Origin: an uncultured Clostridia bacterium
Lineage (GTDB): Bacteria; Bacillota; Clostridia; Christensenellales; CAG-917
Reading direction: 5' to 3'
NCBI GenBank assembly: GCA_947305865.1
Contig: CAMZEU010000001.1
Coordinates: 1,607-65,606 of the forward strand
DNA length: 64,000 nucleotides
Shown here piece by piece: positions 31,553 to 61,475 of the stretch. The stretch's first letter is position 1; each line of letters starts with the position of its first letter. The notes beneath the pieces are model-generated. The model was not told where the DNA came from, searched no databases, and was given only the letters and a program-made list of their open reading frames with translations. The position numbers and the translations under genes were made by a program.

Positions 31553-31572
31553 TACTTAACTTTATATAAAGT

Positions 31573-33912: not shown

Positions 33913-33994
33913 ATGTACCGTTTTTTGACCATCATTTGAAAAACTTATAATTTCTGTTGTTTTATATATGTTTTTCATATATAATTTTAATATT

Positions 33995-35071: not shown

Positions 35072-35637
35072 GAGCAAGACATATTGAACGTAAATCTATT
35101 ATGAATAAAACTAAAGATTTAGTTTACATAGCAATATGTACTTCTTTAATTTGTATTTGTTCTTGGATTACTATTCCAAGTGCTATTCCTTTTACACTTC
35201 AAACTTTTGCAATATTTGCAACATTAGGTTTATTAGGTGGTAAAAGAGGAATGCTTGCAATTCTAATATATATTATATTAGGAATAATAGGATTACCGGT
35301 TTTTTCTTCTTTTAATTCTGGAATAGGAGTTATACTTGGACCAACTGGAGGATATATTATTGGATTCTTATTCTCGTCATTTTTATATTTCTTATTAGAA
35401 AAATTTATTAAAAATGAAAATTTAAAACTTATTTTAGGTTTTATTTTGAGTCTAATTTTATGTTATTTAATTGGAACAATATGGTTTTATTATGTTTATG
35501 GAAACAATATTGAATACATGTCATTTTATAATGTAATGATGATTTGTGTTATTCCATTTATTATTCCAGATCTATTAAAAATATTACTTGCATTTGTAGT
35601 AGTAAAAAATGTAAAAAGAAGAATAAATTTAGACTAA
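35068..35637 (+). CDS. bioY: biotin transporter BioY
   Basis: Six-TM ECF S-component pattern (PFTLQTFAIF, GPTGGYIIGF). ATGA overlap with the recF stop; alternative start at 35101. Confidence 0.8.
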   Translation: MRARHIERKSIMNKTKDLVYIAICTSLICICSWITIPSAIPFTLQTFAIFATLGLLGGKRGMLAILIYIILGIIGLPVFSSFNSGIGVILGPTGGYIIGFLFSSFLYFLLEKFIKNENLKLILGFILSLILCYLIGTIWFYYVYGNNIEYMSFYNVMMICVIPFIIPDLLKILLAFVVVKNVKRRINLD

Positions 35638-35647
35638 AATATACAAT

Positions 35648-35696
35648 TGTGGAAAGAGTTGATGAATTGTGAATTATTTGTTAAATTTTATCCACA
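35648..35696. promoter_or_regulatory. DnaA-box cluster upstream of dnaN
   Basis: Perfect TTATCCACA at 35688-35696. Imperfect TGTGGAAAG (35648-35656) and TGTGAATTA (about 35668-35676). An AT-rich stretch follows at about 35790-35835. Confidence 0.5.
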
Positions 35697-35847
35697 TAAA
35701 ATAAAAATAGAAAACACTACATTTAGTTGAACAAACAAAAATAAAATATGATATATTGTGTTTTAGAAAAGTTTTCTACTTGTCAACATACATTATATTA
35801 TGTTATTATTATTTAAAAATAAAATTAAAAAATATAAGGCGTGAAAG

Positions 35848-36951: not shown

Positions 36952-36971
36952 GATTAAATTAGTATGATAAG

Positions 36972-37002
36972 GGCAGGATCTTTAAAAGGTCTTGCCTTTT
37001 TT
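36972..37002 (+). terminator. intrinsic terminator after dnaN
   Basis: 9-bp stem GGCAGGATC / GGTCTTGCC (two G-U pairs), loop TTTAAAA, then a T6 run. Confidence 0.6.
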
Positions 37003-37008
37003 ATTATT

Positions 37009-37790
37009 ATGGGAAAGATAGTAACATTAAAAGTTGAAGAAAAAACATTATTAACAGAAAATGGATGCATTCCATATACTGTTTATTATAAAAATGTTAG
37101 AAATCTTTCATGTAAATTTGATTTAAAAGGAAGCAAGTTAAAAGTATCTATGATTATACAGATTATAAAATTGAATCCTTTTTATATAAAAATATAAAAC
37201 TTATAACAAAATGGATTGAAAAAGCTAGTCAAAATGACATAAAAATTAGCAGAGAATTTTTAGATGGAGAACAGTATTTATTATTAGGAAATTATTACAC
37301 TTTAAAAATAAATAAAGTTAATAATAAAAAGGAAGAAGGAATTAAGATAATAAATAATGAAATTATACTTAATACTTGTGATTTAACTAACAAAGATTAC
37401 AAGAGAAAAATAATAGAAAAATACTATAAAAATTTGGCCAATAGAATTATTTCTGAAGAGTTCCAAATTATTAAAAATAAATATGGTGAAAAGATTCCAA
37501 ATTCATATGGTTATTCTTTAAGAATAAGAAGAATGAAAACATTATGGGGAACAAATAGTTTAAGAACAAAGAAAATCACAATTAATTTCAACTTAATTTT
37601 TGCTCCAATTGAAGACATTGAATACGTAATTATCCATGAGTTTTGTCATTGTGCAGTTAGAAACCATAGCAAGGTTTTCTATTCATATCAACAGATGTTT
37701 TGTCCAGAGTATAAAGCTCGAAAGGCAGATTTAAACAAAAATATCCATCCATTTGTAGTAAAAATAGAGGCAATAAACTCAGCAATATAA
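37009..37790 (+). pseudogene. YgjP/DUF45 (M48-like, HExxH) metal-dependent hydrolase, interrupted by a 1-nt frameshift
   Basis: Frame 1 (MGKIVTLKVEE...GSKLKVS) stops at 37195. Frame 3 is open from 37122 and continues YDYTDYKIESFLYKNIKLITKWIEKA...HEFCHC to 37790. The two track ORFs (36964..37197 and 37434..37790) are pieces of one gene. Confidence 0.6.
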
Positions 37791-37858
37791 AAATGATTGT
37801 ATATTTTTATATTTTTTTGTGGTAAAATATTAGACACAAAATAAAATAGGGATAGTAG

Positions 37859-40800
37859 ATGAAGGGGAAAACTAAATTTTTAATATTAATGCTTGTATTG
37901 TTGATTGTTGCATCAGCAATGATTATGGTTTCTTGTAATAAATCAAAAGGAAATACAGGAACCACCAGTTCAGATACCCCAAGCGACATTGTTGTACCTG
38001 GTACAGACGTCAATTTCACAGTCTACTTTTATTATTTACCAACAGATACAGAGCCATATGCACAAATAACCGTTAAGAGTGGAAGCAAAATTAAAGTTGC
38101 AGATATTCCAACAAATTTAACAAGAGATGGATATCAATTTGGTGGTTGGTATAAGAATACTTCCTATAGTGATGAATTTAATACAAATGCTGTTATCAAT
38201 AAAGACATAAAGCTTTATGCTTTATGGATTGCACCATTTACCATTTCATTCTATGAAGATTTATATGATGGTGTTGTAAATAAAACAATAAAACGTTTCT
38301 CTAATGAAACAGTTAGCCAAGATGAAATTTATACTCCTACAAAGACTGGATACGAATTTGCTGGATGGTATTTAGACACAGATTATAGTCAAGCATATGA
38401 ATTCAGTGATCATTTGCAACGCAGCATTTCATTATATGCAAAGTGGAATTCAACTTATGCTAAACTTCAATTCATAACTAATACTAAATTAAAACAAATC
38501 AATACTATAAGTATTGAAAAAGATAAACCATATACTTTACCAGACCCAACAGTGCCAACAGTTTCATCTGAGAATATGACATTTGTTTGTTGGTGTACGG
38601 ATAAAGCATTAACACAAGAATTAACTGGTGGAACGATTACCATTCTTGAAAATACAACAGTATATGCAAAATGGAATTTCCATAATCATCAACATGATTA
38701 TAATGAACAAGACATAGAGGAAGTTAAACCAGCAACATGTACTGAAGATGGATATAAGGCACGTTGTTGTAAAGAATGTGGGTATTATGAAAACGAAATA
38801 ACTATAACAGCTCTAGGACATAATATTTATGAAAGAGAATGGTTAAACGGTGGGACATTCCATTACCATAGATGCTTAAAATGTGGAGAAGAGTTTGATA
38901 AAGCATCTCATACATATAATGATGGTGAAGTAACAACAAAAGCAACATGTACAGCAGATGGAGAAAAAACATATACATGTACTTTATGTAATGCAACAAA
39001 AACTGAAACAATCGCAGCATTAGGACATGACATAAATGAAGATGAATGGGTAAGCGATGGAGAACACCATTGGCATGCTTGTACCCACGAAGGTTGCGAA
39101 GAACACTTTGATGAACACGAACACGACAGAGTAAGAGACATGACAAAAGACCATGAATCTACAGGCTGTTCAGATCCAGAAGTAGAAGGATATAAGTGTT
39201 CTGTTTGTGGAGCAGACTTATCTAATAAATCTGAACCAATACCACATACATATAACGTAGATGTTTGGGAAAAAGATGAAAATCAACATTGGCATATATG
39301 TAGTGTCTGTAACAATAAAGTAGAATTAGCAGACCATGATTACAACATAGTTGTAACAAAAGCTGCAACTTGTACCGAAACTGGGATAAGAAAATACACA
39401 TGTAAGAAATGTGGTTATATAAAAGAAGAAAAGATACCTAAGACAGCACACGTATTAAAATGGGCTGATGAGAGCGTAACATTCTTAACAGATGAGCAGA
39501 AAGCATTGTTGCCTACATATCACTATAGATATTGTGCAACGTGTCATAGAGTATTCGAAGAATCTAAAGAAGAACACACAATAGACTGGACAGATAAAAA
39601 GTCTCCATCAAACCCGAAAGGTACTGTAACTATTACAGCACAGTCAACATGTACATCACACGGAACGGCGAATGTAACTTGTAAGGTATGCGGACAAACG
39701 CACTTAGGTGTAGAAGTTCCATTAAAGGATCATACATGGGAATTAGATGGACACGTGGATTGTGGATGTACAACGCCAGGATATGACCACTATACGTGTT
39801 CAGTTTGTCACGGTGAGAAACAAGATACAATCCCAGCAGCACATAGATATGTGCTTGTAGACGAAATAGCAAATACATGTACAAAACCTGGTAGCAGAAT
39901 TTATGAATGTGCAACTTGTGGAGATAAAAAGACCGAAGTAATTCCTGCTGGACATACATATACTCATTATGAATATAATGAGACTCACCATTGGCACATC
40001 TGTGAATCATGTCACGACACAATAGATTATGAAGCACACGACTTTGAAATGGTAATGCAGAATACTCCTACAACATGTGGTGAAGACGTCTATGTAATGT
40101 ATAGATGTAAGACATGCTCATACTATTATACAGTAATCGAAACAGGCTTCGGACACGAATGGGATAATGGTAAGGTTATTTCAGATCCAACATGTACAGA
40201 ACCAGGATATAAAGAATATACCTGTATGAAGTGTGGCGAAATTAGAACTGAAACATTTGGTGAACCATTAGGACATGATTGGGATGCAGGTGTTATTACA
40301 AGATCTCCAACATGTACTGTTCCTGGAGAAAGAACATACACATGTAATAGATGTCATATAACAAGAACCGAGTCTATACCAACAATAGATCATGATTGGG
40401 GTGAAGGAGAAGTTACAACAGCTCCAACTTGTACAGCAACAGGTGTTAGAACATATACATGTTCAATGTGTCATGCTACTAGAACAGAAGTCATTCCAAT
40501 GGTACCACATACATATTCAGACGAACCTGAAATCCTTAAACATCCAACCTGTACAGAAGAAGGCGAGAGAGCATTCTATTGTACGGTATGTCATCAAGCA
40601 ATAAGAGAAGCAATACCAGCACTAGGACATGCATGGGATTCTGGCACACAAACAACAGATCCAACCTGTACAGAGACCGGTGTAATGACATTTGAATGTA
40701 CAAGATGTCATGAAACCAAGACAGAGCCTGTTCCAGCATTAGGACACGATTACCACGATGTGGTAACACCTCCAACTTGTACCGAAAAAGGATATACAAC

Positions 40801-42454
40801 TCATACCTGCGCAAGATGTGGAGACGTAAAGGTTGATACATATGTCGATCCGTTAGGACACGCATGGGATGATGGAGTGATTACAACGGATCCAACCTGT
40901 ACAGCAACAGGTGTAAAGACATATACGTGTACAAGATGTCACGCAACAAAGACCGAGTCAGTTCCAATGATACCTCATACATATGGTACGACATGGACAT
41001 ATTTAGACGAAGGCCATGATGCTCTTGAGTGTATTTACTGTGGACATGTCAAAGAAACACGAGAACATGATTATGATGGATATTGCTGTAAGTATTGTCA
41101 TCACCACTTACTCGAGAAGTATAAGACTAAGTTTGATACGTATGGAGCATCTACTAATCCAGTTATTATAGAAAGTGAAGAAGAATATATCTTATTCTTA
41201 GACTATGTATTGTCTAACTACATGACATCAAGTAAGTACTATAAGTTTGGTGGCACATTTGCTTCAACATTGGCCTCTACATATGGAAACATTACACTTG
41301 AAAAGACACATAAAGCAATTCTTCAAGCATACATACCAAAGTGTACAACACCAGTACCAAGTATAGCTTCGTATCTCTGGAACTCAAATCAACAAGCTAT
41401 AGGTATTAAGTGGTCATTATCACTTGGTGGCATAGAGACATGGGAGAAAGCACAATTTGTAGAATACTATGGAACAGAGTTCTATAGTACAGATCCAAAT
41501 GAAACTTGTTATGATGATTCTGAAAACGAAAATTGCCCACAACAAGACTATTACTTCAGTGAATTCTCATCCACAAGAACAAACTCATTTGATGACTTCA
41601 AGTATAAAGAATACCTAGGAACATTTGATTGCGTAACATCAGACCAAATTGTATATGCATTCCAGAACTATCTAAAACCAAACTGCAGCGGCAGAGCATT
41701 ATCTATATTAAATAAAGCAAAAGCAGTATTGAAAAATATAGTAGATGATTCAATGACAGATGTCGAGAAGGTTAAAGCAATCTATAAGTGGTTGGTATCT
41801 AATGTTACATATGATAATGCTGTATTGAATCCAAACAACGGAACAGATACAACAGATGGGCAATGGGTAATGTATGCATCATGGTTTGCAGAAGGTGTAT
41901 TTGATTATGGATATGCAGTCTGTGATGGTATTTCTAAGGCATTCACAATCCTTACAGGATTGGAAGGCATAAGAAGTGTAAGAATTACATCTAATGCACA
42001 AGGCCATGCATGGAACAAAGTCTTCATAGATACAAACGGAGACGGAGTTGGCGAATGGTATGTTGTAGATGCAACATGGGGCAACACGGTAGTAAATAGT
42101 ACTGCGGAAATGTTCAATGCAAAGCATCTCTTTATGACAGATGCACAAAAGGCTGAAGCTGGATGTACTGGAGACAACTATGCAGACGTAGAAGCAATAT
42201 ATTCATTCAACTACTATGCAACAGAAACATTCACATATAATAGCGAAGACTATGATTTATTCATTATAAATGCAAGTGAGTTAACAATACTCATGAACTA
42301 TTTGAATGAAAATAGTGATAAGACAACAACATACAAGACTGTATCAGTCTTTATCTGCGGAAGCAACGTTCCAACAGGTGTTTCATTTGTTGAAGATGGA
42401 TCAGCATCAATAAGCGGTGTTCAAGGGAAATACTACATAATAATTATTAGTTAA
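37859..42454 (+). CDS. giant surface lipoprotein: Listeria-Bacteroides repeats, Cys3-His repeat array and transglutaminase-like core
   Basis: Lipobox MVSCNKS. GYQFGGWY...LYALW and GYEFAGWY...LYAKW repeats. At least 14 copies of the PTCTxxGxxTYTCxxCxxxxTExIPxxGH unit. C-terminal AVCDGISKAF / GHAWNKV / VVDATWG gives a Cys-His-Asp triad. Confidence 0.8.
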   Translation: MKGKTKFLILMLVLLIVASAMIMVSCNKSKGNTGTTSSDTPSDIVVPGTDVNFTVYFYYLPTDTEPYAQITVKSGSKIKVADIPTNLTRDGYQFGGWYKNTSYSDEFNTNAVINKDIKLYALWIAPFTISFYEDLYDGVVNKTIKRFSNETVSQDEIYTPTKTGYEFAGWYLDTDYSQAYEFSDHLQRSISLYAKWNSTYAKLQFITNTKLKQINTISIEKDKPYTLPDPTVPTVSSENMTFVCWCTDKALTQELTGGTITILENTTVYAKWNFHNHQHDYNEQDIEEVKPATCTEDGYKARCCKECGYYENEITITALGHNIYEREWLNGGTFHYHRCLKCGEEFDKASHTYNDGEVTTKATCTADGEKTYTCTLCNATKTETIAALGHDINEDEWVSDGEHHWHACTHEGCEEHFDEHEHDRVRDMTKDHESTGCSDPEVEGYKCSVCGADLSNKSEPIPHTYNVDVWEKDENQHWHICSVCNNKVELADHDYNIVVTKAATCTETGIRKYTCKKCGYIKEEKIPKTAHVLKWADESVTFLTDEQKALLPTYHYRYCATCHRVFEESKEEHTIDWTDKKSPSNPKGTVTITAQSTCTSHGTANVTCKVCGQTHLGVEVPLKDHTWELDGHVDCGCTTPGYDHYTCSVCHGEKQDTIPAAHRYVLVDEIANTCTKPGSRIYECATCGDKKTEVIPAGHTYTHYEYNETHHWHICESCHDTIDYEAHDFEMVMQNTPTTCGEDVYVMYRCKTCSYYYTVIETGFGHEWDNGKVISDPTCTEPGYKEYTCMKCGEIRTETFGEPLGHDWDAGVITRSPTCTVPGERTYTCNRCHITRTESIPTIDHDWGEGEVTTAPTCTATGVRTYTCSMCHATRTEVIPMVPHTYSDEPEILKHPTCTEEGERAFYCTVCHQAIREAIPALGHAWDSGTQTTDPTCTETGVMTFECTRCHETKTEPVPALGHDYHDVVTPPTCTEKGYTTHTCARCGDVKVDTYVDPLGHAWDDGVITTDPTCTATGVKTYTCTRCHATKTESVPMIPHTYGTTWTYLDEGHDALECIYCGHVKETREHDYDGYCCKYCHHHLLEKYKTKFDTYGASTNPVIIESEEEYILFLDYVLSNYMTSSKYYKFGGTFASTLASTYGNITLEKTHKAILQAYIPKCTTPVPSIASYLWNSNQQAIGIKWSLSLGGIETWEKAQFVEYYGTEFYSTDPNETCYDDSENENCPQQDYYFSEFSSTRTNSFDDFKYKEYLGTFDCVTSDQIVYAFQNYLKPNCSGRALSILNKAKAVLKNIVDDSMTDVEKVKAIYKWLVSNVTYDNAVLNPNNGTDTTDGQWVMYASWFAEGVFDYGYAVCDGISKAFTILTGLEGIRSVRITSNAQGHAWNKVFIDTNGDGVGEWYVVDATWGNTVVNSTAEMFNAKHLFMTDAQKAEAGCTGDNYADVEAIYSFNYYATETFTYNSEDYDLFIINASELTILMNYLNENSDKTTTYKTVSVFICGSNVPTGVSFVEDGSASISGVQGKYYIIIIS
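38729..41110 (+). repeat. in-frame tandem repeats encoding Cys-rich (Zn-ribbon-like) modules
   Basis: Seven regular ~114-117-nt units at about 40190, 40306, 40420, 40540, 40660, 40770 and 40885. More divergent units extend back to 38729. Confidence 0.75.
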
Positions 42455-50034: not shown

Positions 50035-52350
50035 ATGAAACTAAAAAGAATTAATTTACTACTCGTAATATTGGCCTTGACATTGGCGCTTATTCTAGGA
50101 TTTGGAATAAGTACTTCTGGTGTTGCCTTAGCAAACGAGGCAGAAACGAGTGGGACATATGGTGGACAAAACACAGATAACTTGTGGTATTACGGCCCAA
50201 CAGACTTAAACATAGAAGCCATTAGGGAAGTAATAATAGGTTGGAATATACCTGCAAGACTTGCTTTAGATGACTATCTAAAGAAAAAACCAATAATTAT
50301 TGCTGTAGCAGATACAGGTTGCAACTTGGCACACGAAGTGTTTGATGATGTTTTATTACAAAATGCAAATGGCGAAGTTGTTTCATATAACTCATATAAT
50401 GCAGCAAACCAAAGATCTGGAATAAATGATGTAACAGACAATGCAAAAGATTATCATGGAACAGGAATGATGTCTGTAATGGCAATGTTAATAAAGGACT
50501 TGGGATTACAAGACTATATTAAGATTTCTCCAATTAAGGTTAGTTACACTAACACAGACAACAAGAAGAATCCATATGAAGCATTTACTCTAAATGCAAC
50601 TAGAGAGGCTATAAGATATGCTGCAGTTGATTTACACGCAGATATCCTCAATCTTTCCTATGGAATTCTTGAAAGCAAGATTGGTCAAAACAATGATTGG
50701 ATACATGACGACAAATTATTGTCTACAATTAATTCGGCTGCAGATCAATTAGTATTAATTGCAGCAGCTGGAAACGATGGCAAAAACTCAGCAGATGATG
50801 CATATTACCTTGCAGCTAATGAAAATGTTATTGGTGTAATGGGATATGATGCAGAAAAGAAAAAGAACGATTCATCCAACTTTGGTAATGCATATGATAT
50901 GTATGCGCCAGCAACAAACATATATGCAGCAAGCAGTGGCTCTAATGCATATAGAGTAGGTACAGGAACATCCTATGCAACAACAATGGTTTCTGTTGCA
51001 ACTGCAATATATGAGCTTAGAGCAAAAGCGGAAAGCTTTACTGAGGACGAATACCCAACAGTTTCTCCTAGAAAAGTAACTAGAGTAATGAGACAACACT
51101 CCCCAAGTGTTATTACATATAGCTACAAAGAGAACCAAGGAACTCCAAACGAGAAGACTATTACTTATACACAACCTAAAATCAATCTCTATTCTCTCTT
51201 AACTGAAGACTATTCAGATATAGATACAAAGTTTGATCCAGTAACCGGTATTGGCATTACTCAAACAGGCACACAATTCGAGGATGTGGAGGATGAAAAA
51301 TTAGGTAATATTAAGCTCGCAAAAGTATCAATTCATGATAGTGGAGAGATAAATGTTAAGGCATACTTAAAACCTAAGAATGCTACAGATCCAGTACTTG
51401 ATAAGAACATAACATGGGTTATAACTAACGATTCTGGTGAAAGACGTGTAATTGCCTCTGGTGCAGAACTTAAATATTTGGTATCCAAAAACGATGTAAT
51501 TAGCAGCCAAGATCAAACAGCAAGAATATATCTCCAAGCAGAGTATGGCAGCTTTACAGATACATGGTATATAGACTTCCAATTTGATGCATATAACAAC
51601 AATTCAAGCATACAAATTAAGGCAGACGGAAAGATAAAGAATGGTGTTATAGATGTTAATAAGCCTATCAAACTAAGCATCTCTGGATTAGAGTATGTAA
51701 ACCTTAATGTTGGTATTATTTGGTATGTAAATGGCGAGATATATGCAACCACACAGACATCTTCTATAACCTTTACACCAAAGGAAGAAGGCACATATGA
51801 ATTCAGTGCACAATATGGTGCATGGCCAAAGAAAATATTAAATACAGTAACTATTAAAGCAGAAATTAACGTATGGTTAATAGTAACAACTTGTGTTGCA
51901 GCACTTTTAGTGCTGATTGCAGTAGGAGTAATTGTTCTTGCATTTGTTAAGAAGAATTATAAACCTAAAGAAAAACCAGAAAAGGTCGAAGCAGATGAGA
52001 CTGTAGAAGAAAAGAAAGGCCCATATAAACCAAGTGTAACAGTATGGCTCATAATAGGATTACTTATCAGCTTCGTGATATTAATAGTATTCTATGGAAT
52101 ACTAATGACCAAGGTCGAAGAGTTACAAATTAGTGCTGTAGGCGCAATAGTTTGCCAAGTGCTCATCTTATTGTTATTTGCATTTGTTGGTGTAATATTG
52201 GCTGCTCAAATTCTTTCAGAAAGAAAGAAGAAAGAGCCAGTACAAGAAGAACCAGCAGAGGATAACAATGTAGAGGAAGAAGCACAACCTGCAGAAGAGA
52301 CACAAGAAGAATTTGTAGAAGAACAACCAGAAGAGAATAATGAGCAATAG
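50035..52350 (+). CDS. S8 subtilisin-like serine protease with signal peptide, three C-terminal TM helices and acidic tail
   Basis: Asp (AVADTG), His (HGTGM) and Ser (GTGTSYAT) triad blocks. TM helices near aa 615, 665 and 700. Tail is EEPAEDNNVEEEAQPAEE. Starts 4 nt after gltX and overlaps the next gene by 11 nt. Confidence 0.85.
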   Translation: MKLKRINLLLVILALTLALILGFGISTSGVALANEAETSGTYGGQNTDNLWYYGPTDLNIEAIREVIIGWNIPARLALDDYLKKKPIIIAVADTGCNLAHEVFDDVLLQNANGEVVSYNSYNAANQRSGINDVTDNAKDYHGTGMMSVMAMLIKDLGLQDYIKISPIKVSYTNTDNKKNPYEAFTLNATREAIRYAAVDLHADILNLSYGILESKIGQNNDWIHDDKLLSTINSAADQLVLIAAAGNDGKNSADDAYYLAANENVIGVMGYDAEKKKNDSSNFGNAYDMYAPATNIYAASSGSNAYRVGTGTSYATTMVSVATAIYELRAKAESFTEDEYPTVSPRKVTRVMRQHSPSVITYSYKENQGTPNEKTITYTQPKINLYSLLTEDYSDIDTKFDPVTGIGITQTGTQFEDVEDEKLGNIKLAKVSIHDSGEINVKAYLKPKNATDPVLDKNITWVITNDSGERRVIASGAELKYLVSKNDVISSQDQTARIYLQAEYGSFTDTWYIDFQFDAYNNNSSIQIKADGKIKNGVIDVNKPIKLSISGLEYVNLNVGIIWYVNGEIYATTQTSSITFTPKEEGTYEFSAQYGAWPKKILNTVTIKAEINVWLIVTTCVAALLVLIAVGVIVLAFVKKNYKPKEKPEKVEADETVEEKKGPYKPSVTVWLIIGLLISFVILIVFYGILMTKVEELQISAVGAIVCQVLILLLFAFVGVILAAQILSERKKKEPVQEEPAEDNNVEEEAQPAEETQEEFVEEQPEENNEQ

Positions 52351-52927
52351 GAAAGAAGAACTTCAAAATGAGATCAAGGAATTGTATAACAAGTTAGATG
52401 TTATAGATAAATCTATAAACAAGAAAAAACAAACCTTGGCAGCATATATTGAAGAAAAGGAAAAAGCAGAAAAAGAATTAAATGACATGAATTCTGCTGA
52501 AACCAAAACCTATATGCAAGTTCAACTACATTCTTTAAAGAATGCAAAGATGAAAAACCAAATGGGAATCAAAAATATAGATGGAAAGATAGCCCAATTG
52601 GAAAAAGATATGCAAAACCCTAGAGAGGTAAAAGAAGGATACGAAGAAACACAAAAGGCAATAGCAGAATTAAAAGACAAAAAGCTTATTCTTCAATCCG
52701 AGATTTCTAGAATAGAAAGAGATATTTCTCAACTAGAGAACAAACTAGAGAGTGTTATTCTAGGGAAAAGCGAAGCAGATGAATTAAGACAAACTATAAA
52801 TGATTTAGAGTTTGCAATTAAATCATTAACGAAAGATATAGAAATAGAGGAAACACGGAACAAGTCTAGAATATATGACATAAAAGAAACAATAGAAGAA
52901 AAGGAAAGAGAACTTAGCACTTTATGA
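52340..52927 (+). CDS. coiled-coil protein (first gene of the kinase/vWA/PP2C/helicase operon)
   Basis: 195 aa, heptad-rich and K/E-rich throughout. ATGA overlap with the kinase gene. Confidence 0.6.
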   Translation: MSNRKEELQNEIKELYNKLDVIDKSINKKKQTLAAYIEEKEKAEKELNDMNSAETKTYMQVQLHSLKNAKMKNQMGIKNIDGKIAQLEKDMQNPREVKEGYEETQKAIAELKDKKLILQSEISRIERDISQLENKLESVILGKSEADELRQTINDLEFAIKSLTKDIEIEETRNKSRIYDIKETIEEKERELSTL

Positions 52928-54216
52928 TTGATTTAAAGCGTAACGAAAGAATACAAATCAAGAATGGTTCTAAAGCCGAGGTTATTCAAAAGATAGGCGA
53001 AGGTGGACAAGGGGCCGTTTATAAGGTTCATTATGCTAGAGAAGATTATGCTATGAAGCTTTACTTTCCGCGTGCAATAAAAAGAAAGAACGAATTTTAT
53101 GCTAATCTAGAAAATAACGTAGTTAATGGTTCTCCAAATGCTTCATTCCTTTGGCCTTTATATATAACCGAGATAAAGAATGGCACTTTTGGTTACTTAA
53201 TGAAATTAAGACCAGCTGGATATGAAGACTTTTCCAAGATTTTAACAGCAAAAGTACGAATGGATAGTGATCTAGCAATTATTAATGCAGCACTACATCT
53301 GGTTAATGCTTTTAAGGATTTGCATAGTAAAGGATATAGTTACCAAGACTTAAATGATGGCAACTTCTTCATAAATCCAACAAACGGAGATGTTTTAATT
53401 TGTGATAACGACAACGTGGCCCCATATGGACAAAATGTGGGAGTAGATGGAAAGAGCAGATATATTGCTCCGGAAGTTGTTACAGGTAAGAGTAGACCAA
53501 ATGTTCATACAGACAGATTCTCTCTTGCTGTTGTATTATTTATGCTTTTCTTTAGAGGACATCCTTTTGAAGGAGCAAAGACAGCTTCACATTGTTGTTT
53601 GACAGAACAACTTGAAAAAGAGTATTACGGAGTACATCCATTATTCTGTTATGATCCTAAAGACAACAGCAACCGTCCTGTAAGGGGCATACACAACAAT
53701 GTAATAAGATTGTGGGATATGTATCCAAAATACATCCAAGATGCATTCACAAAGGTTTTCACGGTTGGTATTAAGGATGTTAATGAAAGGCTCACAGAAA
53801 GAGAGTGGACTAATATTCTATTAAGATATCGAAATGCAACAATACATTGTTCCTGTGGCTGTTACAATACGTTTGAAGATGAATCACAAGTTAGATTAAC
53901 TTGTGCAGATTGCGGAGCAGAGATAAATAGACCATTAATTTTAACAATTAAGAAGAACAAGATATATCTATATCCAGATTCAAGGTTATACACATACCAA
54001 GTGGAAGATACAGATGACCTCTTCCAAGAATCCGGAATAGTTATTGTAAATAAAGCAAATAAATCTCTTTGGGGATTAAAGAACTTATCCAAGAACAGTT
54101 GGATAGTAGAGTATGCTGGTGGAGAACAGAAGGTTATACCTTCTGGAGGAGTACTGGTCTTATTAAAAGGAACAAAAATATTTTTCGGAAACGAATATAG
54201 TGGAGAAATAAACTAG
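52924..54216 (+). CDS. Hanks-type Ser/Thr protein kinase with C-terminal Zn-ribbon and FHA-like domain
   Basis: IGEGGQGAVYKV, AMK, YQDLNDGN, CDNDN, RYIAPE motifs. CSCGC...CADCG Zn-ribbon. The terminal ~90-aa beta-rich segment (LKNLSKNSWIVEY...GTKIFFGN) is FHA-like. Confidence 0.8.
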   Translation: MIDLKRNERIQIKNGSKAEVIQKIGEGGQGAVYKVHYAREDYAMKLYFPRAIKRKNEFYANLENNVVNGSPNASFLWPLYITEIKNGTFGYLMKLRPAGYEDFSKILTAKVRMDSDLAIINAALHLVNAFKDLHSKGYSYQDLNDGNFFINPTNGDVLICDNDNVAPYGQNVGVDGKSRYIAPEVVTGKSRPNVHTDRFSLAVVLFMLFFRGHPFEGAKTASHCCLTEQLEKEYYGVHPLFCYDPKDNSNRPVRGIHNNVIRLWDMYPKYIQDAFTKVFTVGIKDVNERLTEREWTNILLRYRNATIHCSCGCYNTFEDESQVRLTCADCGAEINRPLILTIKKNKIYLYPDSRLYTYQVEDTDDLFQESGIVIVNKANKSLWGLKNLSKNSWIVEYAGGEQKVIPSGGVLVLLKGTKIFFGNEYSGEIN

Positions 54217-54226: not shown

Positions 54227-54940
54227 ATGGGTAAATATGACAATGTTGAAGGAATAGCAAGACGTACAATGATACTATTTTTCTTAATTGATACATCAAA
54301 TAGTATGTCTGGAACAAAAATCGGTGAAGTTAACGATGCTATAGAAGGTGTTATACCTGAAATCAAGGAAATATCTGCATCCAATGCAGATGCATTAATT
54401 AAGATTGCTTGTTTAACATTTTCTACAGGTATTAAATGGATGTATCCAAACCCAGTAGATGTAAACGACTTCAAGTGGAGTTATGTTAATGCAGGTGGCA
54501 TGACAGAAATGGGTAAAGCTTTTGAAGTATTAAATGAGAAACTATCTAGAAATGAGTTTATGGCAGAAGTTGCAGGTTCATATGCTCCAGCAATATTCCT
54601 TTTATCTGATGGTGCCCCAACAGATGAATATAAAGAAGCAATAGATAAACTCAAGAAGAACAACTGGTTCAAGTATGCACTAAAAGCAGCAGTTGCAATT
54701 GGTGACGATGCAGACAAAGAAATGTTGGCAACATTTACCGGAGACGATGAATTGGTATTAACAGCACACTCTCCAGAAGCTTTAAGAAAGGTTATTAGAT
54801 TTGTTAGCGTAACAGCATCTAAGATAGGAAGCAAGAGCTCTGTATCTACACAAACCAACAATGCAAAGCAAGATGATTTTGCAGAACAAATCACAGAATT
54901 CAATAGCGATTTAATAGATTCACAAAATGATAATTGGTAA
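54227..54940 (+). CDS. von Willebrand factor A (TerY-like) protein
   Basis: AGGGGG RBS. MIDAS motif DTSNSMSG with GGMTEMG and LLSDGAPTD. Confidence 0.8.
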   Translation: MGKYDNVEGIARRTMILFFLIDTSNSMSGTKIGEVNDAIEGVIPEIKEISASNADALIKIACLTFSTGIKWMYPNPVDVNDFKWSYVNAGGMTEMGKAFEVLNEKLSRNEFMAEVAGSYAPAIFLLSDGAPTDEYKEAIDKLKKNNWFKYALKAAVAIGDDADKEMLATFTGDDELVLTAHSPEALRKVIRFVSVTASKIGSKSSVSTQTNNAKQDDFAEQITEFNSDLIDSQNDNW

Positions 54941-55784
54941 TAAAAACATCTCCAATATTAAGTCTTTTGCACTATCTCAAATTGGCGCAAGCCATAAAGA
55001 TTATGAGATATGCGAGGATTATTCTGGTTCATACCAGGATGATATTATGTCCATTGTTTGCGTTGCAGATGGGCATGGAGATAGTAGATGTGTGAGAGCA
55101 AATATTGGTTCTCAAATTGCTGTAGAAGTAGGAATTCAAGCAGTACGTGAATTTATATCAAATCAACCAAACATAGATTTAAAAGATACAAAAGAAACAG
55201 ATAAAGCATTTGTTCAGTTAAAATCATATATTTTATATAAGTGGCTAGAAAAGATAAAAGAGCATCTAGATTATAATCCGTTGAAGGATGATGAACGCAG
55301 ATTAATGGACATAGAAATGCAAGAAGAATATGAAAGAGATGGGACTATAAAATATTTCCCATTGCTATATGGAAGCACATTTATTCTCGCATGCGTAACC
55401 AATGGATTTTATTTTGCTCTTCAACTTGGAGACGGAGATGTTGTTCTCCGTACAAAGAAAGCATATATCTTCCCAATGCCAGAAGACGAAAGGTGTGTAG
55501 GCAATTTTACAACGTCACTTTGCAATGCGGATGCAATAGATTCATTTAGACACTTTTATGAGAAAGGAAGTCCAAGAGCATTATTTGTTTGTACGGATGG
55601 GCTCAAGAATTCTTTTGCAGAAAGTAAGTTCTTGTTCCTGTTCCTGGAAAAGGTTGGAGAAAACGTTTTAGAAAGTGGTGAAGTAAAAGCAGTAAATGAT
55701 TTGTCTGTGTTCTTGGATACATTATCTGAGATGGGAAGTAGAGACGATATCTCTATTGGAGCAATTATAGATATAGGTGAGTGA
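54927..55784 (+). CDS. PP2C-family protein phosphatase
   Basis: GASHKD..CEDY, VADGHGDS, LGDGD, CTDGL and RDDIS metal-binding blocks. 14-nt overlap with the vWA gene. Confidence 0.75.
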   Translation: MIIGNKNISNIKSFALSQIGASHKDYEICEDYSGSYQDDIMSIVCVADGHGDSRCVRANIGSQIAVEVGIQAVREFISNQPNIDLKDTKETDKAFVQLKSYILYKWLEKIKEHLDYNPLKDDERRLMDIEMQEEYERDGTIKYFPLLYGSTFILACVTNGFYFALQLGDGDVVLRTKKAYIFPMPEDERCVGNFTTSLCNADAIDSFRHFYEKGSPRALFVCTDGLKNSFAESKFLFLFLEKVGENVLESGEVKAVNDLSVFLDTLSEMGSRDDISIGAIIDIGE

Positions 55785-55786
55785 GT

Positions 55787-58777
55787 ATGAGTGTTTATGA
55801 TGCATTATACAGAGCCATAGAAGAAAGTCCAGAAATCTGTACCAACATAAAAAGGTTCAGAGGTATTCTTTTGGACTTATCTATGGATGATGTCGCAAGC
55901 GTAAATCTTATAGAACTTGCCATGAAGCAAGGATTACATATAAAAGTTTCCAAGATTGCTAGAAATAATCAAAGAGAAATCCAGAATATTATTACAGACT
56001 TTGTTAAATCTTTCTCAATTAACCAATCTAGAATTCCTTGGCTAACTGAGTTCTTTACAAATGTATTTGCAGAAAGAGATTTAATTTCAAAGGAAGAAAG
56101 AGGATCTAAGTTAAAATTTGGTAAGCAAGGTAAATATTTGTTGTTAGATAGAACGGATATCGCCACACCAATTAAGAATTATATTCCATGTGGCTCTGGC
56201 AAGCAGGATTATGGTTTCTATGTTAACGGGCTAAAAGAAGAAGATATGTGTGTGCATCCTAGAGCAGGTGTATATGCAACGGTATTTGGCATTTTGCAAC
56301 GTAATCTTAATATGAAACCATCTGCATTTATAAAAGAATATGAGAAGAGTGTTAAAACTAGCTTGAATTATTCTATGGTATACAGGCTAGAAATGATGAT
56401 TCTTCTAATGATTAAAAACAATTACATAAAAGAAGACATAGTTTCTCTAAAATATGATGGAAATGTAGAAGATATAAATGCGGCCATAGAAGAAATTAAC
56501 CATATAAGTGAAAGTATCTGCAAATTAGCAAGAATTGAATTTAAGAAATTAAAGTATAAATTTGCAGCAACAGGTGTATTCTTATCCTCTAAGGAAGAAG
56601 ATGGCATTATCCAATTTAAGAATGCAAGCAAGAGAGAAACAGAGTGTAGATATATTTGGAACGAAAGAAACCTCATATATTCCATTAACAATGAGAACGA
56701 AGGATATTTAGATATTCTCTTAGACGAGATATTTGATTTCAAGACATTCTTACCAGGGCAAAAGGAATCTTTAATAGACATCTTAAACAAGAAGGATGCA
56801 AGAGAGATATGTATCATGCCAACAGGTAGTGGCAAGTCTTTAATATACTACTTCGTCGCAATGCTTAATCCATGCCCAACATTTGTCATTGTTCCAACAG
56901 ATATCCTTATTCTAGACCAAATAAGAAATCTACAACTCTTCCATGGTATAGATGATGTCATGTATTTGGCAAGCAGTATGAACTATTCTGCATTCATTCC
57001 AAGCAACAAATTCATATTCGTTAATCCAATGACATTTATGGATAGAAAATTGCTAAACAAATTAATAGATCTTAACAACAAACAAGTCATCGGAAACGTA
57101 GTTTTGGATGAGGTCCATTGTATATCTAACTGGAGCCATGATTTCAGGCCAGAATACCTAATGCTATCCTTTAACCTAACAGAATTCGTAGATAAAACCC
57201 CGTATTTGGGATTTACGGCTACTGCGAACTATTCTGTAGTTAAGGATATAAAAGAGCAATTACACATAGATGAAAAGAATATAATTTGTCCAATATCTTT
57301 GAAGAATACAGCTATGCATTTTAGCTATACAGAGTGTACAAATGTAGACAAAATATACTCTCAAATAGGGCAAGAAATAACCTCTTCTGTATCCGATTCT
57401 GTGGACACATTAAAGAGAACATTAGTCTTTACTCGCACAGCAAAAGAAGCCCAAAAAGTCTATGACCAATTAGACGAATCCACAAGGGAACATGTAGATA
57501 TTTTCAACAATAGTACCTCCTCGTATTCGGATTTTGCAGAAGGTGAAACAGATGTTTTAATAGCAGATGATACTATGGGAATTGGTATCAATATGCCAAG
57601 TATTACAAACATTATTCATATGGGTGCACCTATATCTAAGAGTGAATATGTACAAGAAATGGGTAGAGCCGGAAGAAACGGAATAGAGAGTTCTTCCTCC
57701 ATTGTTTATCTTGGCAAGAGTGAATATAAGGAAGATTATAAGAGACTTATAGATAGAAACGTAAAGATAGACAATATATTGTCTTTGCTTAATAGAGCAG
57801 ATTTAGAAGATGAATTTAAAACCATTGTTGGAAAGATATTTGGAAATGTAGAAGACAAGATAGCATTTGTAAGAAAAGTTATCACTGTTAGTGATAGCAT
57901 TCAAAAGATGGATCTTCAAGGTGTATTGGCATTTAATGTTAAGGATGTACACAATTATGCCGAAACATCTAAGATAATGAGATACCTTTATGTTTTACAT
58001 AAAACTGGCATAATTTACTCCTGGTACTTTGAAGGAATTAATGAAAAAGAAGGCATAATAAGTTTCTATATAGATCAAGGCAAAGAAAAAGCAACACTAG
58101 ATAGAGTAAAACAAGGAAGTTTAAACTATATTAATAGTTTAGGAATATACAAGAAAGCAACACATCAAATAAAAGAAGCAGAAAGCATAGAAGATGTCAT
58201 TATGGCATATGTAGAATGGCATTATTCTCAACTCTTGTATTATCACAGAGAACAATTCATAGATATGCTTGATTTCTTAGATGTATACAAAGATAGAAGT
58301 GATACAGAAAAGGCAGAAGCGCTTGAGAGTTATTTTGCATTGTCTATCTTAGATGTTCAAAGAGATGTTAAGAAAACAGACAATCTTTCTATTGAAGAAA
58401 TCATAAGATTTGCAAGCTCATCTCCAACTCTTGCTTTAGCAGATAATATGAGAAAGAGCAACGAAGGTAAGTATATGGTTAAGATAGACTTGTTCTTATT
58501 GTTATACAATCTCTTCCAATTTGACGACTTTGATAAATCCAGATATAAGAGAATATTAAGCAATCTCAACGATGCTGAACTCAAAGAGTTCATAGATGGC
58601 ATATACTTGTTCTATCCAAGACTTAAGGAAGAGGATAAGCTAAACATAATAGATGGTCTAGTTCCAAAGATTAATGTTGGAGAATTGCTAGATATCATAT
58701 ATAGAAACACACCAAAAGATACCGTATATTATTACATATTTGCATTATATGCAAATAAAGTGTTCGGAGACAAATAA
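55787..58777 (+). CDS. RecQ-family (SF2) helicase with large unassigned N- and C-terminal regions
   Basis: ATG lies 6 nt after AGGTGA (the track starts at GTG 55781). Motif I MPTGSGKS, motif II LDEVHCISNWSHDFRPEY, motif III GFTATAN, motif VI QEMGRAGRNG. The first ~320 aa and last ~350 aa carry no motif I recognise. Confidence 0.8.
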   Translation: MSVYDALYRAIEESPEICTNIKRFRGILLDLSMDDVASVNLIELAMKQGLHIKVSKIARNNQREIQNIITDFVKSFSINQSRIPWLTEFFTNVFAERDLISKEERGSKLKFGKQGKYLLLDRTDIATPIKNYIPCGSGKQDYGFYVNGLKEEDMCVHPRAGVYATVFGILQRNLNMKPSAFIKEYEKSVKTSLNYSMVYRLEMMILLMIKNNYIKEDIVSLKYDGNVEDINAAIEEINHISESICKLARIEFKKLKYKFAATGVFLSSKEEDGIIQFKNASKRETECRYIWNERNLIYSINNENEGYLDILLDEIFDFKTFLPGQKESLIDILNKKDAREICIMPTGSGKSLIYYFVAMLNPCPTFVIVPTDILILDQIRNLQLFHGIDDVMYLASSMNYSAFIPSNKFIFVNPMTFMDRKLLNKLIDLNNKQVIGNVVLDEVHCISNWSHDFRPEYLMLSFNLTEFVDKTPYLGFTATANYSVVKDIKEQLHIDEKNIICPISLKNTAMHFSYTECTNVDKIYSQIGQEITSSVSDSVDTLKRTLVFTRTAKEAQKVYDQLDESTREHVDIFNNSTSSYSDFAEGETDVLIADDTMGIGINMPSITNIIHMGAPISKSEYVQEMGRAGRNGIESSSSIVYLGKSEYKEDYKRLIDRNVKIDNILSLLNRADLEDEFKTIVGKIFGNVEDKIAFVRKVITVSDSIQKMDLQGVLAFNVKDVHNYAETSKIMRYLYVLHKTGIIYSWYFEGINEKEGIISFYIDQGKEKATLDRVKQGSLNYINSLGIYKKATHQIKEAESIEDVIMAYVEWHYSQLLYYHREQFIDMLDFLDVYKDRSDTEKAEALESYFALSILDVQRDVKKTDNLSIEEIIRFASSSPTLALADNMRKSNEGKYMVKIDLFLLLYNLFQFDDFDKSRYKRILSNLNDAELKEFIDGIYLFYPRLKEEDKLNIIDGLVPKINVGELLDIIYRNTPKDTVYYYIFALYANKVFGDK

Positions 58778-58787: not shown

Positions 58788-59105
58788 ATGAGCGAGTTAG
58801 AAAATTTAGTACAAGAAATTGAAAAGTTCAAACAAAACGTAAGCCAATCTAATAAACTATATGAAAAATTAGACAAGGCCATTGAGGCAACTGAATTAGC
58901 AGCAGATTCTCAAAGATCTTTAAAAGATGATGTTGTAGCTAAATTTGATGAATTATCAAAGCAATATCAATCTTTAGAAAAAGAGATAAAAGAAATAGGT
59001 AACGAAGTTAAAAAGCAAAAGAAATTGAACCTTATTCTTGGTTGTGGACTAGGAGTTTTAGGTATAGTTTCTATCGTTTTGTTAATACTAATTTTGGCAT
59101 TATAA
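58788..59105 (+). CDS. tail-anchored coiled-coil membrane protein
   Basis: AAAGGAG RBS and MSELENLV start (16 codons inside the track ORF). Coiled-coil N-terminus and a single C-terminal TM (LILGCGLGVLGIVSIVLLILILAL). Confidence 0.6.
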   Translation: MSELENLVQEIEKFKQNVSQSNKLYEKLDKAIEATELAADSQRSLKDDVVAKFDELSKQYQSLEKEIKEIGNEVKKQKKLNLILGCGLGVLGIVSIVLLILILAL

Positions 59106-59144: not shown

Positions 59145-59173
59145 TTGACAACAAAAAATACTTGTATTAAAAT
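59145..59173 (+). promoter_or_regulatory. putative promoter of tRNA-Ile
   Basis: TTGACA (59145-59150), 17-nt spacer, TAAAAT (59168-59173). About 20 nt before the tRNA 5' end. Confidence 0.45.
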
Positions 59174-59192
59174 AAACACGCTAACGAAATAA

Positions 59193-59269
59193 GGGGTTGT
59201 AGCTCAGTTGGTTAGAGCACGCGCCTGATAAGCGCGAGGTCGATAGTTCGAGCCTATTCAACCCCACCA
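59193..59269 (+). tRNA. tRNA-Ile (anticodon GAU), CCA encoded
   Basis: Acceptor stem GGGGTTG/CAACCCC, D-arm TAGCTCAGTTGGTTAGAGC, anticodon stem CGCGC/GCGCG with loop CTGATAA, T-arm GGTCGATAGTTCGAGCCTATT; 77 nt. Confidence 0.93.
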
Positions 59270-59275
59270 TATAAG

Positions 59276-59306
59276 ACACTTGATTTTACATCAGGTGTTT
59301 TTCTTT
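59276..59306 (+). terminator. intrinsic terminator after tRNA-Ile
   Basis: Stem ACACTTGA pairs with TCAGGTGT (one G-U pair), loop TTTTACA, then TTTTTCTTTT. Confidence 0.75.
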
Positions 59307-59373: not shown

Positions 59374-60363
59374 ATGGCAGGCGAGAAAAAAATGGCAATA
59401 GTAGTAATACTTAAAATACTTCAAGATGAAACCGATGAAAATAATCCTCTTAATCAAAGCGAAATTAAAAAAATACTTTCTGAAGATTATGGTATTGATT
59501 ATGCAAGAAAAGCTATTGGAGATAGTGTCAAATTATTAATTGGTTTAGGATACCCTATTTGCCACACTAGACAAGAAGGCTATTACATGAATAAAAAAGT
59601 TTTTACAGATCCCGAATCAAATGTTTTAATAGATGCTATTCTTGCAAGTAAGTGTATTTCCACCACAAATACAAAGAAATTAATTGATAAAATAGTAGGC
59701 TTGGCTGGGAAAAACTTTAAAACAAATGCAAAGAGAGTATTACTCGCTAACGATTGGGATAAAACAGAAAATGACGATTTATTCAAGAATGTAAATAACC
59801 TTGCTATTGCAATCGAAAAGGGCAGACAAGTTGAATTTGATTATTATAAATATCAAAAGAATAAGAAACTTGATAAGACTAGCCACCAAGTAGTATCTCC
59901 ATATCAATTGGTTATGCATAACCAAAGATATTATTTAATGTGTCATGACGACAGACACACAGGAATTGCTTATTTCAGAGTAGATAGAATGAAAGAAATA
60001 AGAATTAATACTGATATAAAAGCAACAGATATACGATCTGTTCAAGGATATAAGGCAGGAATAGACTTCAAAAAATTCTCTAGATGTTTACCTTATATGT
60101 TTGCAGATTATCCAGAAACAATAATATTTAAAGCAGAGAATTGGGCAATAGACCAAGTTATTGAGTGGTTTGGTAAAGATATCAATATAGAAGACATTCC
60201 TGGAGACGATAAACATGTACAAGTTACAGTAACAGTTAGTCCAAATGCAATGGAGTACTGGGTACTTCAATTCTCAAAAGGTGTAGAAGTTATATATCCT
60301 AATGAGTTTAAGGAAAGAATTATTAACGACATCAAAGAGATGGCCAAAAAGTACGGTATTTAA
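59374..60363 (+). CDS. wHTH-WYL-WCX transcriptional regulator (BrxR/CapW/PafBC-like architecture)
   Basis: AAGGAG RBS. N-terminal winged-HTH-like segment. WYL core VSPYQLVMHNQRYYLMCHDD...AYFRVDRMKEIRI. C-terminal WCX-like segment. Confidence 0.75.
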   Translation: MAGEKKMAIVVILKILQDETDENNPLNQSEIKKILSEDYGIDYARKAIGDSVKLLIGLGYPICHTRQEGYYMNKKVFTDPESNVLIDAILASKCISTTNTKKLIDKIVGLAGKNFKTNAKRVLLANDWDKTENDDLFKNVNNLAIAIEKGRQVEFDYYKYQKNKKLDKTSHQVVSPYQLVMHNQRYYLMCHDDRHTGIAYFRVDRMKEIRINTDIKATDIRSVQGYKAGIDFKKFSRCLPYMFADYPETIIFKAENWAIDQVIEWFGKDINIEDIPGDDKHVQVTVTVSPNAMEYWVLQFSKGVEVIYPNEFKERIINDIKEMAKKYGI

Positions 60364-60467
60364 GCAAATAATACCCTTTTAATGAATTAAACACTATGTC
60401 AACTTTTGAAATGGTTCGGCATAGTGTTATAATATTATGTACAAAACATAAGCGAGGAGGTATTTAT

Positions 60468-61475
60468 ATGAATAAGAAAATTATTTCACTTTGTTTGTGT
60501 ATATGTATTGTATTGATTATGTGTGCAGCTCTTGTTGGATGCAACAACAAGTATATTAAAACATACTCCGTAACATATGATTTAAACGGAGGATCTTGGA
60601 CAGATGCATTTAAAGAATCCAAGAGCATGCAATCCAATAACCTAATTTCTATTATTAATGCTCTATATTATGAAGGAGCAACAAACTCATTGCCAAAGTA
60701 TGGAGATATTAATCCACCATCCGGAAAGATATTTGCAGGCTGGTATATAGATAAAGAGTTTAAAAAGCCATGGACAAAAGCAAATTTTGATGCTTATATG
60801 GAAGAATTCCCAGATACAACAACTGTAAGAGTTCATGCAAAATGGATCAATGCTGGTTCGCTGGATGTTGTTTACTATGTAAACAATAAAAACTCTTCTT
60901 TCACAAGCGATGGTTTATATTGTAAAGTAGTTAATTCTTCTCATTCTATAACAGCAGACCAAGTTTTATCTTCAGCACCATCTGTTTCTCAAATGACACC
61001 TATAGATGGTTATGAATTTAAAGGATGGACAGAATCTCCAGAAGCACTTCAAACTCAATTAGATGGTATTGAAGCCAATAACGGACAAATTATTCTTAAT
61101 GCAAAATGGAAACAAATACCTATGGTAATTCTATCTTATGACTGTGTATCTTGCTTGGATGAAAATGGTCAGTTCAAAACAATAGAGAATTGTCCAGTAT
61201 GGTTTAATGGAACAAATTATAATTCTCCAAAGATTAGAAGAGATTTAATAACAGCAGAAACTTTGACACAAGCAACAACAGAGTTTGAATCATATTTGGA
61301 ACTTAACGAAGGGTATACATCATATACTATATCTAAATGGATGATAGCAGAATATGATATGAATGCAAGTAAGTATGTATTGAAAGAATACACAGTATCC
61401 AACATAGTTGAATACTTGGAAGGCTACGATTATCTATCAGAGTGGGTATTTACACTTCTTCCAATATATGAATAA
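60468..61475 (+). CDS. lipoprotein with Listeria-Bacteroides repeat domains
   Basis: AGGAGG RBS and MNKK start (24 codons inside the track ORF). Lipobox LVGCNNK. FAGWYIDKEF...HAKW and GYEFKGWTE...NAKW repeats. Confidence 0.7.
   Translation: MNKKIISLCLCICIVLIMCAALVGCNNKYIKTYSVTYDLNGGSWTDAFKESKSMQSNNLISIINALYYEGATNSLPKYGDINPPSGKIFAGWYIDKEFKKPWTKANFDAYMEEFPDTTTVRVHAKWINAGSLDVVYYVNNKNSSFTSDGLYCKVVNSSHSITADQVLSSAPSVSQMTPIDGYEFKGWTESPEALQTQLDGIEANNGQIILNAKWKQIPMVILSYDCVSCLDENGQFKTIENCPVWFNGTNYNSPKIRRDLITAETLTQATTEFESYLELNEGYTSYTISKWMIAEYDMNASKYVLKEYTVSNIVEYLEGYDYLSEWVFTLLPIYE

Follow-up and report, generated by a model that had tools for sequence, protein, structure and literature searches.

The 64,000-nucleotide stretch analysed here (the window; positions 1,607 to 65,606, forward strand, of contig CAMZEU010000001.1 from an uncultured Clostridia bacterium) encodes a RecQ-type helicase within a run of signalling genes, and at roughly even odds (a probability of about 0.5) this helicase is the nucleic-acid motor of a defence-island cassette, in which its extreme N-terminal domain, N1, couples it to a phospho-switch of kinase, vWA protein and PP2C phosphatase. 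The helicase would be derived from RecQ, having lost the zinc site and HRDC and gained two modules, a domain ahead of the core (N2) and a 12-helix domain after a winged-helix-like unit. Its constant working partner would be a small tail-anchored coiled-coil membrane protein (CC2) encoded just downstream. The extreme N-terminus would be an exchangeable slot, filled here by N1, a putatively non-catalytic helical domain linking the helicase to the upstream TerY-P-like switch, and in switch-less relatives by a nuclease or RNase domain or some other domain. The claim is a computational one.

RecQ-type core, upstream triad and N-terminal slot

A search of 5.8 billion clustered proteins returned 641 homologues, most of them about 1000 residues long and covering 86-100% of the query, so the gene is real, and its engine is of the RecQ type. 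The ATG at 55787 is the start chosen by the homologues, with residues numbered here from the GTG at 55781. All six RecQ signatures sought by regular expression in the translated open reading frame (ORF) are present, namely motif 0 (FDFKTFLPGQ, residue 318), motif I (TGSGKS, 348), motif II (DEVH, 443), the aromatic-rich loop (HCISNWSHDFRP, 446), motif III (TATA, 479) and motif VI (QEMGRAGR, 625). Pfam places DEAD at 325-489 and Helicase_C at 544-634, and PDB chains of RecQ, BLM, WRN and RECQ1/5 match residues 313-643 only, with E down to 2e-28. The TIGR00614 RecQ_fam model matches at 314-643 with 165.9 bits, under its cut-off of 219.8, and the recQ equivalog of NCBIfam reaches 163 bits, under its cut-off of 640.2. 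The best PADLOC matches are DpdF (9.1e-49) and PsyrT (4.9e-44), spanning 313-659, with the NCBIfam model of DpdF scoring 109.6 bits against a cut-off of 550 over the core only. The first-pass annotation of this DNA, made from the letters alone, had described a RecQ core set between large N- and C-terminal regions without recognisable domains, and this description was borne out, residues 1-312 and 646-998 giving as separate pieces zero Pfam matches even at E<=1 and zero matches in NCBIfam, PADLOC and PHROGs.

Placement of the helicase in a signalling operon was likewise upheld, with kinase, vWA and PP2C genes directly upstream; the genes of the cassette lie in a row on the + strand, their ends overlapping or almost abutting (Table 1), and the PP2C stop lies 2 nucleotides before the helicase ATG. 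Adjacent kinase, vWA and PP2C genes make up the composition of the TerY-P triad, that is the vWA protein TerY, a PP2C phosphatase and a Ser/Thr kinase, as summarised in passages of PMC11090510 and PMC4978471. The kinase continues into a Cys-rich CxCxC...CxxC segment (HCSCGCYN...TCADCGAE), which no domain model matched, and then a beta-rich tail. In PADLOC, the vWA and PP2C proteins matched 0 families and the kinase only the mad6 and PD-T4-6 models, and the cassette is not recognised by PADLOC as a system. There are no dpd genes in the window and no PsyrA-like partner nearby. A ribosome-binding site, AAAGGAGA, precedes the ATG of CC2.

When the ORFs of homologue loci were classed by jackhmmer and an N1 hidden Markov model (HMM), the gene 3' of the helicase proved to be of the CC2 type in every locus where that gene is complete. 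Proteins of the CC2 type have a conserved motif at the N-terminus, continue through a coiled coil whose length varies and end in a transmembrane helix. The order kinase-vWA-PP2C-helicase-CC2 recurs in 10 loci (the window, L001-L005, L086, L088, L095 and L098). Helicases with N1 stand directly behind the triad in four of five lineages. The fifth, P0081, is an exception to this pattern, in that N1 is present and the C-terminus of PglX, not PP2C, lies directly upstream in a BREX-like locus; P0081 also bears an added C-terminal PIN domain. Conversely, the upstream DNA covered is without the triad in 7/7 loci whose helicase lacks N1 (L093, L096, L099, L100, L101, L104 and L105). Six of these seven keep a CC2-type gene, the contig of L093 stopping inside the helicase gene. 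In such N1-negative members the slot is taken by HEPN_Swt1 (P0115), DUF4145 (P0071, P0146) or NERD (P0184, P0213), is empty (proteins of about 885 residues) or holds another N-terminal domain (alignment A8; P0031, P0034, P0054, P0059 and others) in which Y28, Q32, N88, K91, H92 and N117 are invariant, with a motif NxxANxxKH. The A8 domain was not recognised by Pfam, and hhalign comparisons of it with DUF4145-type N-termini and with N1 were negative; by eye, its motif resembles the Rx4-6H motif of HEPN domains.

Among N1-negative loci with longer flanks, neighbouring genes include DarT/NADAR, DUF488/DuOB, SIR2, Schlafen, NERD-HRDC, PIF1 and mobile-element genes, of which the first four are typical of defence. 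In L096 (197-1901), a family helicase without the triad has directly upstream of it genes for DarT, a single-stranded-DNA ADP-ribosyltransferase, and for a NADAR antitoxin. In L099 (2380-6667), a second helicase (Zn_ribbon_Top1, DUF559 and DEAD) with its own CC2-like coiled-coil and transmembrane gene and DUF488/DuOB genes is found immediately upstream of the family helicase, so that modules of helicase and tail-anchored protein stand in tandem. The family is also used in a BREX-like locus, L102 (1-11835), where a helicase that has N1 and, at its C-terminus, a PIN domain stands between the C-terminus of PglX and genes for PglZ, TerB_N and BrxC/BrxD-like proteins. In searches by tblastn, 72,556 plasmid records and 50,697 phage records returned generic RecQ cores only and no family member, and a family-specific DNA pattern matched 13 metagenome contigs and nothing in IMG/VR.

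In the alignment of N1 (A7), D32 is the sole invariant residue and W92 is near-invariant, and no conserved Ser/Thr acceptor was found. The earlier suggestion that the flanks might hold sensor or phospho-acceptor domains is plausible for N1 (residues 1-100) only, the part that tracks the triad across loci; N2 and the C-terminus are not linked to the triad. The linker behind N1 is modelled as disordered at residues 104-122. Searched against the set of 5.8 billion proteins, the N1 profile found 5 short proteins only, the sensitivity of so short and diverse a profile being low; the two that were read are N-terminal fragments of helicases. N1 was considered as a shared adaptor and rejected, as the N1 HMM detected no further copy among the cassette proteins of the loci. 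Descent of N1 from HEPN was similarly rejected, hhalign being negative both against the alternative N-terminal domain and against DUF4145-type N-termini.

The helicase and CC2 form the constant core of the cassette, to which the N2 and C-terminal domains belong since they are conserved whether the triad is present or absent; for the same reason these domains would serve the helicase's own mechanism and not phospho-signalling. The most economical reading of the alignments and gene orders is that N1 is the interface for the vWA-kinase-PP2C switch, as it is the sole part that tracks the triad and occupies the same slot as the fused nucleases of sister proteins. The domain anatomy, the confinement of N2 to this family, the conservation of gene order and the joint occurrence of N1 and triad are results of the analysis. 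From them we infer that the triad regulates the helicase via N1, by binding or by phosphorylation, and the C-terminal or N2 modules may dock CC2 or nucleic acid. That Asp32 of N1 completes the metal-ion-dependent adhesion site (MIDAS) of the vWA protein is speculation. The cassette as a whole would act against phages or other invading DNA, a role suggested by the neighbourhood, the nuclease fusions, the patchy distribution and the different insertion sites. If the reading proves true, this cassette offers a concrete, testable case of the way in which a eukaryote-like switch of kinase, phosphatase and vWA protein is coupled to an effector that acts on nucleic acid in bacterial immunity, with the adaptor picked out by its co-occurrence with the triad.

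An alternative is that the helicase is a housekeeping or stress-response RecQ paralogue of DNA repair or recombination, tuned by Ser/Thr phosphorylation and without a role in defence. The RecQ-type core would suit such a function, as would the setting of the cassette on the chromosome, at a distance of about 20 kb from the origin region and immediately downstream of gltX, from which no terminator separates it. The family is, however, rare and patchily distributed, with 154 clusters among 1.84 billion representative proteins. In different genomes the cassette occupies different chromosomal positions, flanked by housekeeping genes that are unrelated, its relatives are fused to NERD, HEPN or PIN amid DarTG, SIR2, Schlafen and BREX-like genes, its obligatory partner is a membrane-anchored coiled-coil protein and its score falls short of the cut-off for the RecQ family. 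Given the patchy distribution and the defence-type context, a housekeeping repair helicase is unlikely.

The N2 domain and the C-terminal flank

For regional identities the best 120 of the 641 homologues were aligned, with 7 close relatives set apart (59-97% identity in N2 and the C-terminus, 67-97% in the core). Both N2 and the C-terminus are conserved across all 120 listed full-length homologues (identities in Table 1), and the flanks are, on these alignments, modules conserved in a family whose proteins have about 1000 residues. Structure prediction and a Foldseek search of the flanks, as the first-pass annotation had proposed, gave confident AlphaFold2 models, built with 98-99 homologues (pLDDT, from the predicted local distance difference test, 89.1 for residues 1-325 and 93.4 for 640-998), and no PDB neighbour for either.

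N2 is modelled as an alpha/beta fold at residues 130-300, followed by a helix into motif 0. Its motif PCGxGxxDxGFxIxG spans P136-G150, and R174, R202, K212-N214, N240, R290, W293 and Y300 are also conserved. Foldseek found no neighbour of the N-terminal model in PDB or in BFVD, and the N2 profile (A3) had no match among PDB sequences; among the 1.84 billion representative proteins it found just the 154 matches at E<=0.001. In the 150 of these that were listed, N2 lies at about residues 130-350 in proteins of about 1000 residues, at about 320-570 in proteins of about 1200-1270 residues or at the extreme N-terminus of proteins of about 885 residues without N1, with outliers such as 445-626 of 1320 and 645-784 of 1373 residues. 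Some matches are short proteins, probably fragments at contig ends. The long matches that were scanned all bear DEAD/Helicase_C except P0220, which has no Pfam match, and N2 thus looks restricted to this helicase family. Two roles for N2 were tried and rejected: a zinc site at Cys137, Cys157 and His159, since C157 and H159 are substituted in many members, and the D143 loop as a vWA ligand, since N2 is conserved equally in members without the triad.

The C-terminal model runs from four helices through a beta-alpha-beta-beta unit into about 12 helices (Table 1). Absence of an RQC or HRDC signature after motif VI, noted at the outset, was confirmed, with no Pfam match to RQC, HRDC or RecQ_Zn_bind at E<=1 and no zinc ligands. 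The question is whether the flanks might nonetheless be the canonical zinc, RQC winged-helix and HRDC domains of RecQ in strongly diverged form, together with an N-terminal extension. The HMMER alignment of the full-length family profile to human RECQ1 does run about 65 residues beyond motif VI, into the helical part of the zinc-binding subdomain, and alignments of phrog_33220 and phrog_6819 to the helicase reach to about residues 753-790. The query, however, has no cysteine after residue 645, that is in its C-terminal 353 residues, and no column in 646-770 exceeds 20% cysteine across 121 sequences, leaving no four-cysteine zinc site. This alignment extension and the lack of cysteines suggest that residues 646-710, the first fifth of the C-terminal flank, are probably what is left of the zinc hairpin of RecQ, in degenerate form and without zinc.

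The unit that follows (711-770) conserves LYxLxxxGxIxxWY (L739, G743, W748) and stands with its helix where RecQ has the winged helix. It is, as modelled, a possible counterpart of that domain, even though a profile of the whole family C-terminus gave an hhalign probability of 0.26%, no similarity, against a canonical zinc, winged-helix and HRDC profile (A6, built from 80 ordinary recQ loci, core-only matches from a contig scan with the full-length family alignment), and neither Pfam RQC nor a RecQ chain in a Foldseek search of PDB was matched. The last 12 or so helices (771-998) are read as a family-specific domain standing in place of HRDC, with no profile similarity to the RecQ C-terminus; a motif WYYxxFLYHHREQFLD (W813...D828) is conserved, as are Y815, H822, E824, Q825, F832, F852, D903, R921, R924, D980 and N992, and the C-terminal profile (A4) has no match among PDB sequences. 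Of the 353 C-terminal residues, divergence from canonical RecQ would explain about 120 at most, and it would leave all 312 N-terminal residues without explanation; as an account of the flanks as a whole it is improbable. The earlier view that these are not ordinary accessory domains of RecQ accordingly stands for the flanks at large, in which neither Foldseek nor profile searches found a match, and gives way at the zinc-hairpin remnant.

It had also been proposed that the flanks conceal a nuclease, to be sought together with zinc-binding motifs in profile alignments. In its strongest form, N2 or the C-terminal helical domain would be an unrecognised enzyme, a nuclease or another, and one self-sufficient protein would then unite helicase and nuclease effector. 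Helicases of defence systems frequently carry a fused nuclease, and several of the strongly conserved residues are polar (D143, R174, R202, K212-N214, N240 and R290 in N2; H822, E824, Q825, D903, R921, R924, D980 and N992 in the C-terminus). Neither flank, however, matched a nuclease family or a nuclease fold, and the proposal finds no support. NERD, HEPN_Swt1, DUF4145 and PIN occur in relatives only, as separate domains that are present in addition to N2 and the C-terminus, which suggests that N2 and the C-terminus do not themselves supply nuclease activity; the helical C-terminus, with its aromatic-rich conserved helices, also looks structural. A cryptic nuclease is very improbable.

Genes of the cassette and its surroundings

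Table 1. Cassette genes in the window and regions of the helicase, with identities to the query.
Feature	Window position	Strand	Description
S8 subtilase	50035..52350	+	Membrane-anchored; signal peptide, C-terminal transmembrane segments, acidic tail
CC1	52340..52927	+	195-residue coiled-coil protein; overlaps both neighbouring genes
Ser/Thr kinase	52924..54216	+	Pkinase 1.3e-18; catalytic motifs readable
vWA protein	54227..54940	+	Pfam VWA 6.7e-10; DxSxS MIDAS motif (DTSNS)
PP2C phosphatase	54927..55784	+	PP2C_2 2.9e-25; DGHGD motif
Helicase gene	55781 (GTG) or 55787 (ATG) to 58777	+	998 or 996 residues
N1, residues 1-100	55781..56080	+	Helical domain; AlphaFold2 pLDDT 77-96
Linker, residues 101-125	56081..56155	+	Charged, length-variable; pLDDT about 50, occupancy 0.69
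N2, residues 126-312	56156..56716	+	Family-specific alpha/beta domain; 24-43% identity outside close relatives; in all full-length members
RecQ-type superfamily 2 (SF2) core, residues 313-645	56717..57715	+	All motifs and aromatic-rich loop; 41-52% identity outside close relatives; in all members
Residues 646-710	57716..57910	+	Four helices; N/D677-D678 conserved; no cysteines
Residues 711-770	57911..58090	+	Beta-alpha-beta-beta unit (secondary structure of the model)
Residues 771-998	58091..58774	+	Family-specific domain, about 12 helices
N1 region, residues 1-125			5-25% identity outside close relatives; presence variable
C-terminus, residues 646-998			20-36% identity outside close relatives; in all members
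CC2	58788..59105	+	105-residue coiled-coil protein; C-terminal transmembrane helix (tail-anchored)

Ahead of the triad stand two further genes of the cassette, for an S8 subtilase, which starts 4 nucleotides past the gltX stop, and for the coiled-coil protein CC1. This pair was found only in the closest relatives (L004 and L088) and is therefore a lineage-specific addition to the cassette.

Directly after the cassette lies a gene for tRNA-Ile(GAT) at 59193-59269 (region 59145-59301), which has a near-consensus promoter-like site of its own (TTGACA-17-TAAAAT) as well as a terminator-like hairpin, followed by a gene for a WYL/WCX regulator at 59374-60363. In L004, a relative with 85% identity, the region compared (13667-17076) shows an AAA_14/DUF4143 ATPase as well as a RelE/HTH pair inserted between CC2 and the WYL gene, and the interval between these two genes looks like a variable hotspot.

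Elsewhere in the window, the cumulative GC skew has its minimum at about 28-30 kb, where gene orientation also flips from - to +. Near this minimum are a recF-like SMC_N gene (33968-35071) and dnaN (35848-36951), with a GC content of 25-26% at 34-38 kb, and the region 28000-38000 is probably the chromosomal origin region. A protein of 1531 residues with Listeria-Bacteroides repeats and a transglutaminase core is encoded at 37859-42454, and a smaller repeat protein at 60396-61475.

Comparison with known systems

Like the canonical RecQ proteins (E. coli RecQ, human RECQ1, BLM and WRN), which provide its best PDB and NCBIfam matches, the helicase has SF2 motifs 0-VI, the loop HxxSxWGHDFRP and, after motif VI, a helical hairpin that aligns to the zinc subdomain of RECQ1. 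Unlike them, it is without the four-cysteine zinc site, a detectable RQC winged helix or HRDC, falls under the TIGR00614 cut-off, is longer by about 310 residues at its N-terminus, ends in a helical domain of about 230 residues that is unique to it, and shares its operon with genes for a membrane protein and for the kinase, vWA protein and PP2C phosphatase. DpdF, of Dpd 7-deazaguanine restriction, and PsyrT, the toxin of PsyrTA, also have RecQ-like cores in defence contexts, but the similarity is limited to residues 313-659 and the flanking domains are not shared.

Zorya (ZorAB and ZorD) and Kiwa pair a membrane component with a cytoplasmic nucleic-acid enzyme. By analogy, a membrane-embedded coiled-coil component and a cytoplasmic nucleic-acid enzyme may work together here as well, although there is no sequence relationship and CC2 is a single-pass tail-anchored protein and not a motor complex.

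RecQ-like defence helicases, such as DpdF and PsyrT, and TerY-P triads attached to helicase-centred systems, as in CoCoNuT, are kinds already known. The N2 and C-terminal domains, the obligatory tail-anchored partner and the alternation of N1 plus triad with nucleases were not found described in the searchable literature; nor was the combination of TerY-P with a RecQ-type helicase, although the 2012 TerY-P paper, which lies outside that scope, may mention the association. It is tentatively possible, if somewhat doubtful, that the cassette is an undescribed anti-phage system with a membrane-tethered helicase, new folds in N2 and the 12-helix domain and a phospho-switch that restrains or activates the helicase via N1, itself functionally interchangeable with the fused nuclease effectors of sister systems. 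Of wider interest are two confidently predicted domains without a neighbour among solved structures (for N2, nor among predicted viral ones) and a pair of helicase and tail-anchored coiled-coil protein that recurs in defence islands, one BREX-like locus included.

The TerY-P triad, reportedly described by Anantharaman et al. in 2012 and Gao et al. in 2020, shares with the present cassette the same three adjacent domain types, here likewise beside a predicted nucleic-acid-processing helicase, and differs in that no PADLOC model covers the vWA or PP2C protein of this cassette and that the partner is a RecQ-like helicase with a tail-anchored protein. For TerY-P of CoCoNuT loci a zinc ribbon has been described, and the Cys-rich C-terminal segment of the present kinase resembles it. 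CoCoNuT types II and III-A are built around CnuH, a UPF1-like helicase of superfamily 1, in contrast to the RecQ-like SF2 helicase here, which has neither McrBC nor the HEPN protein CnuE as a partner and whose coiled-coil partner is a tail-anchored membrane protein. The logic of the two is nonetheless the same, TerY-P being in both an optional addition to a helicase-centred module rich in coiled coils, with variants lacking TerY-P in which other nuclease effectors are fused to the helicase.

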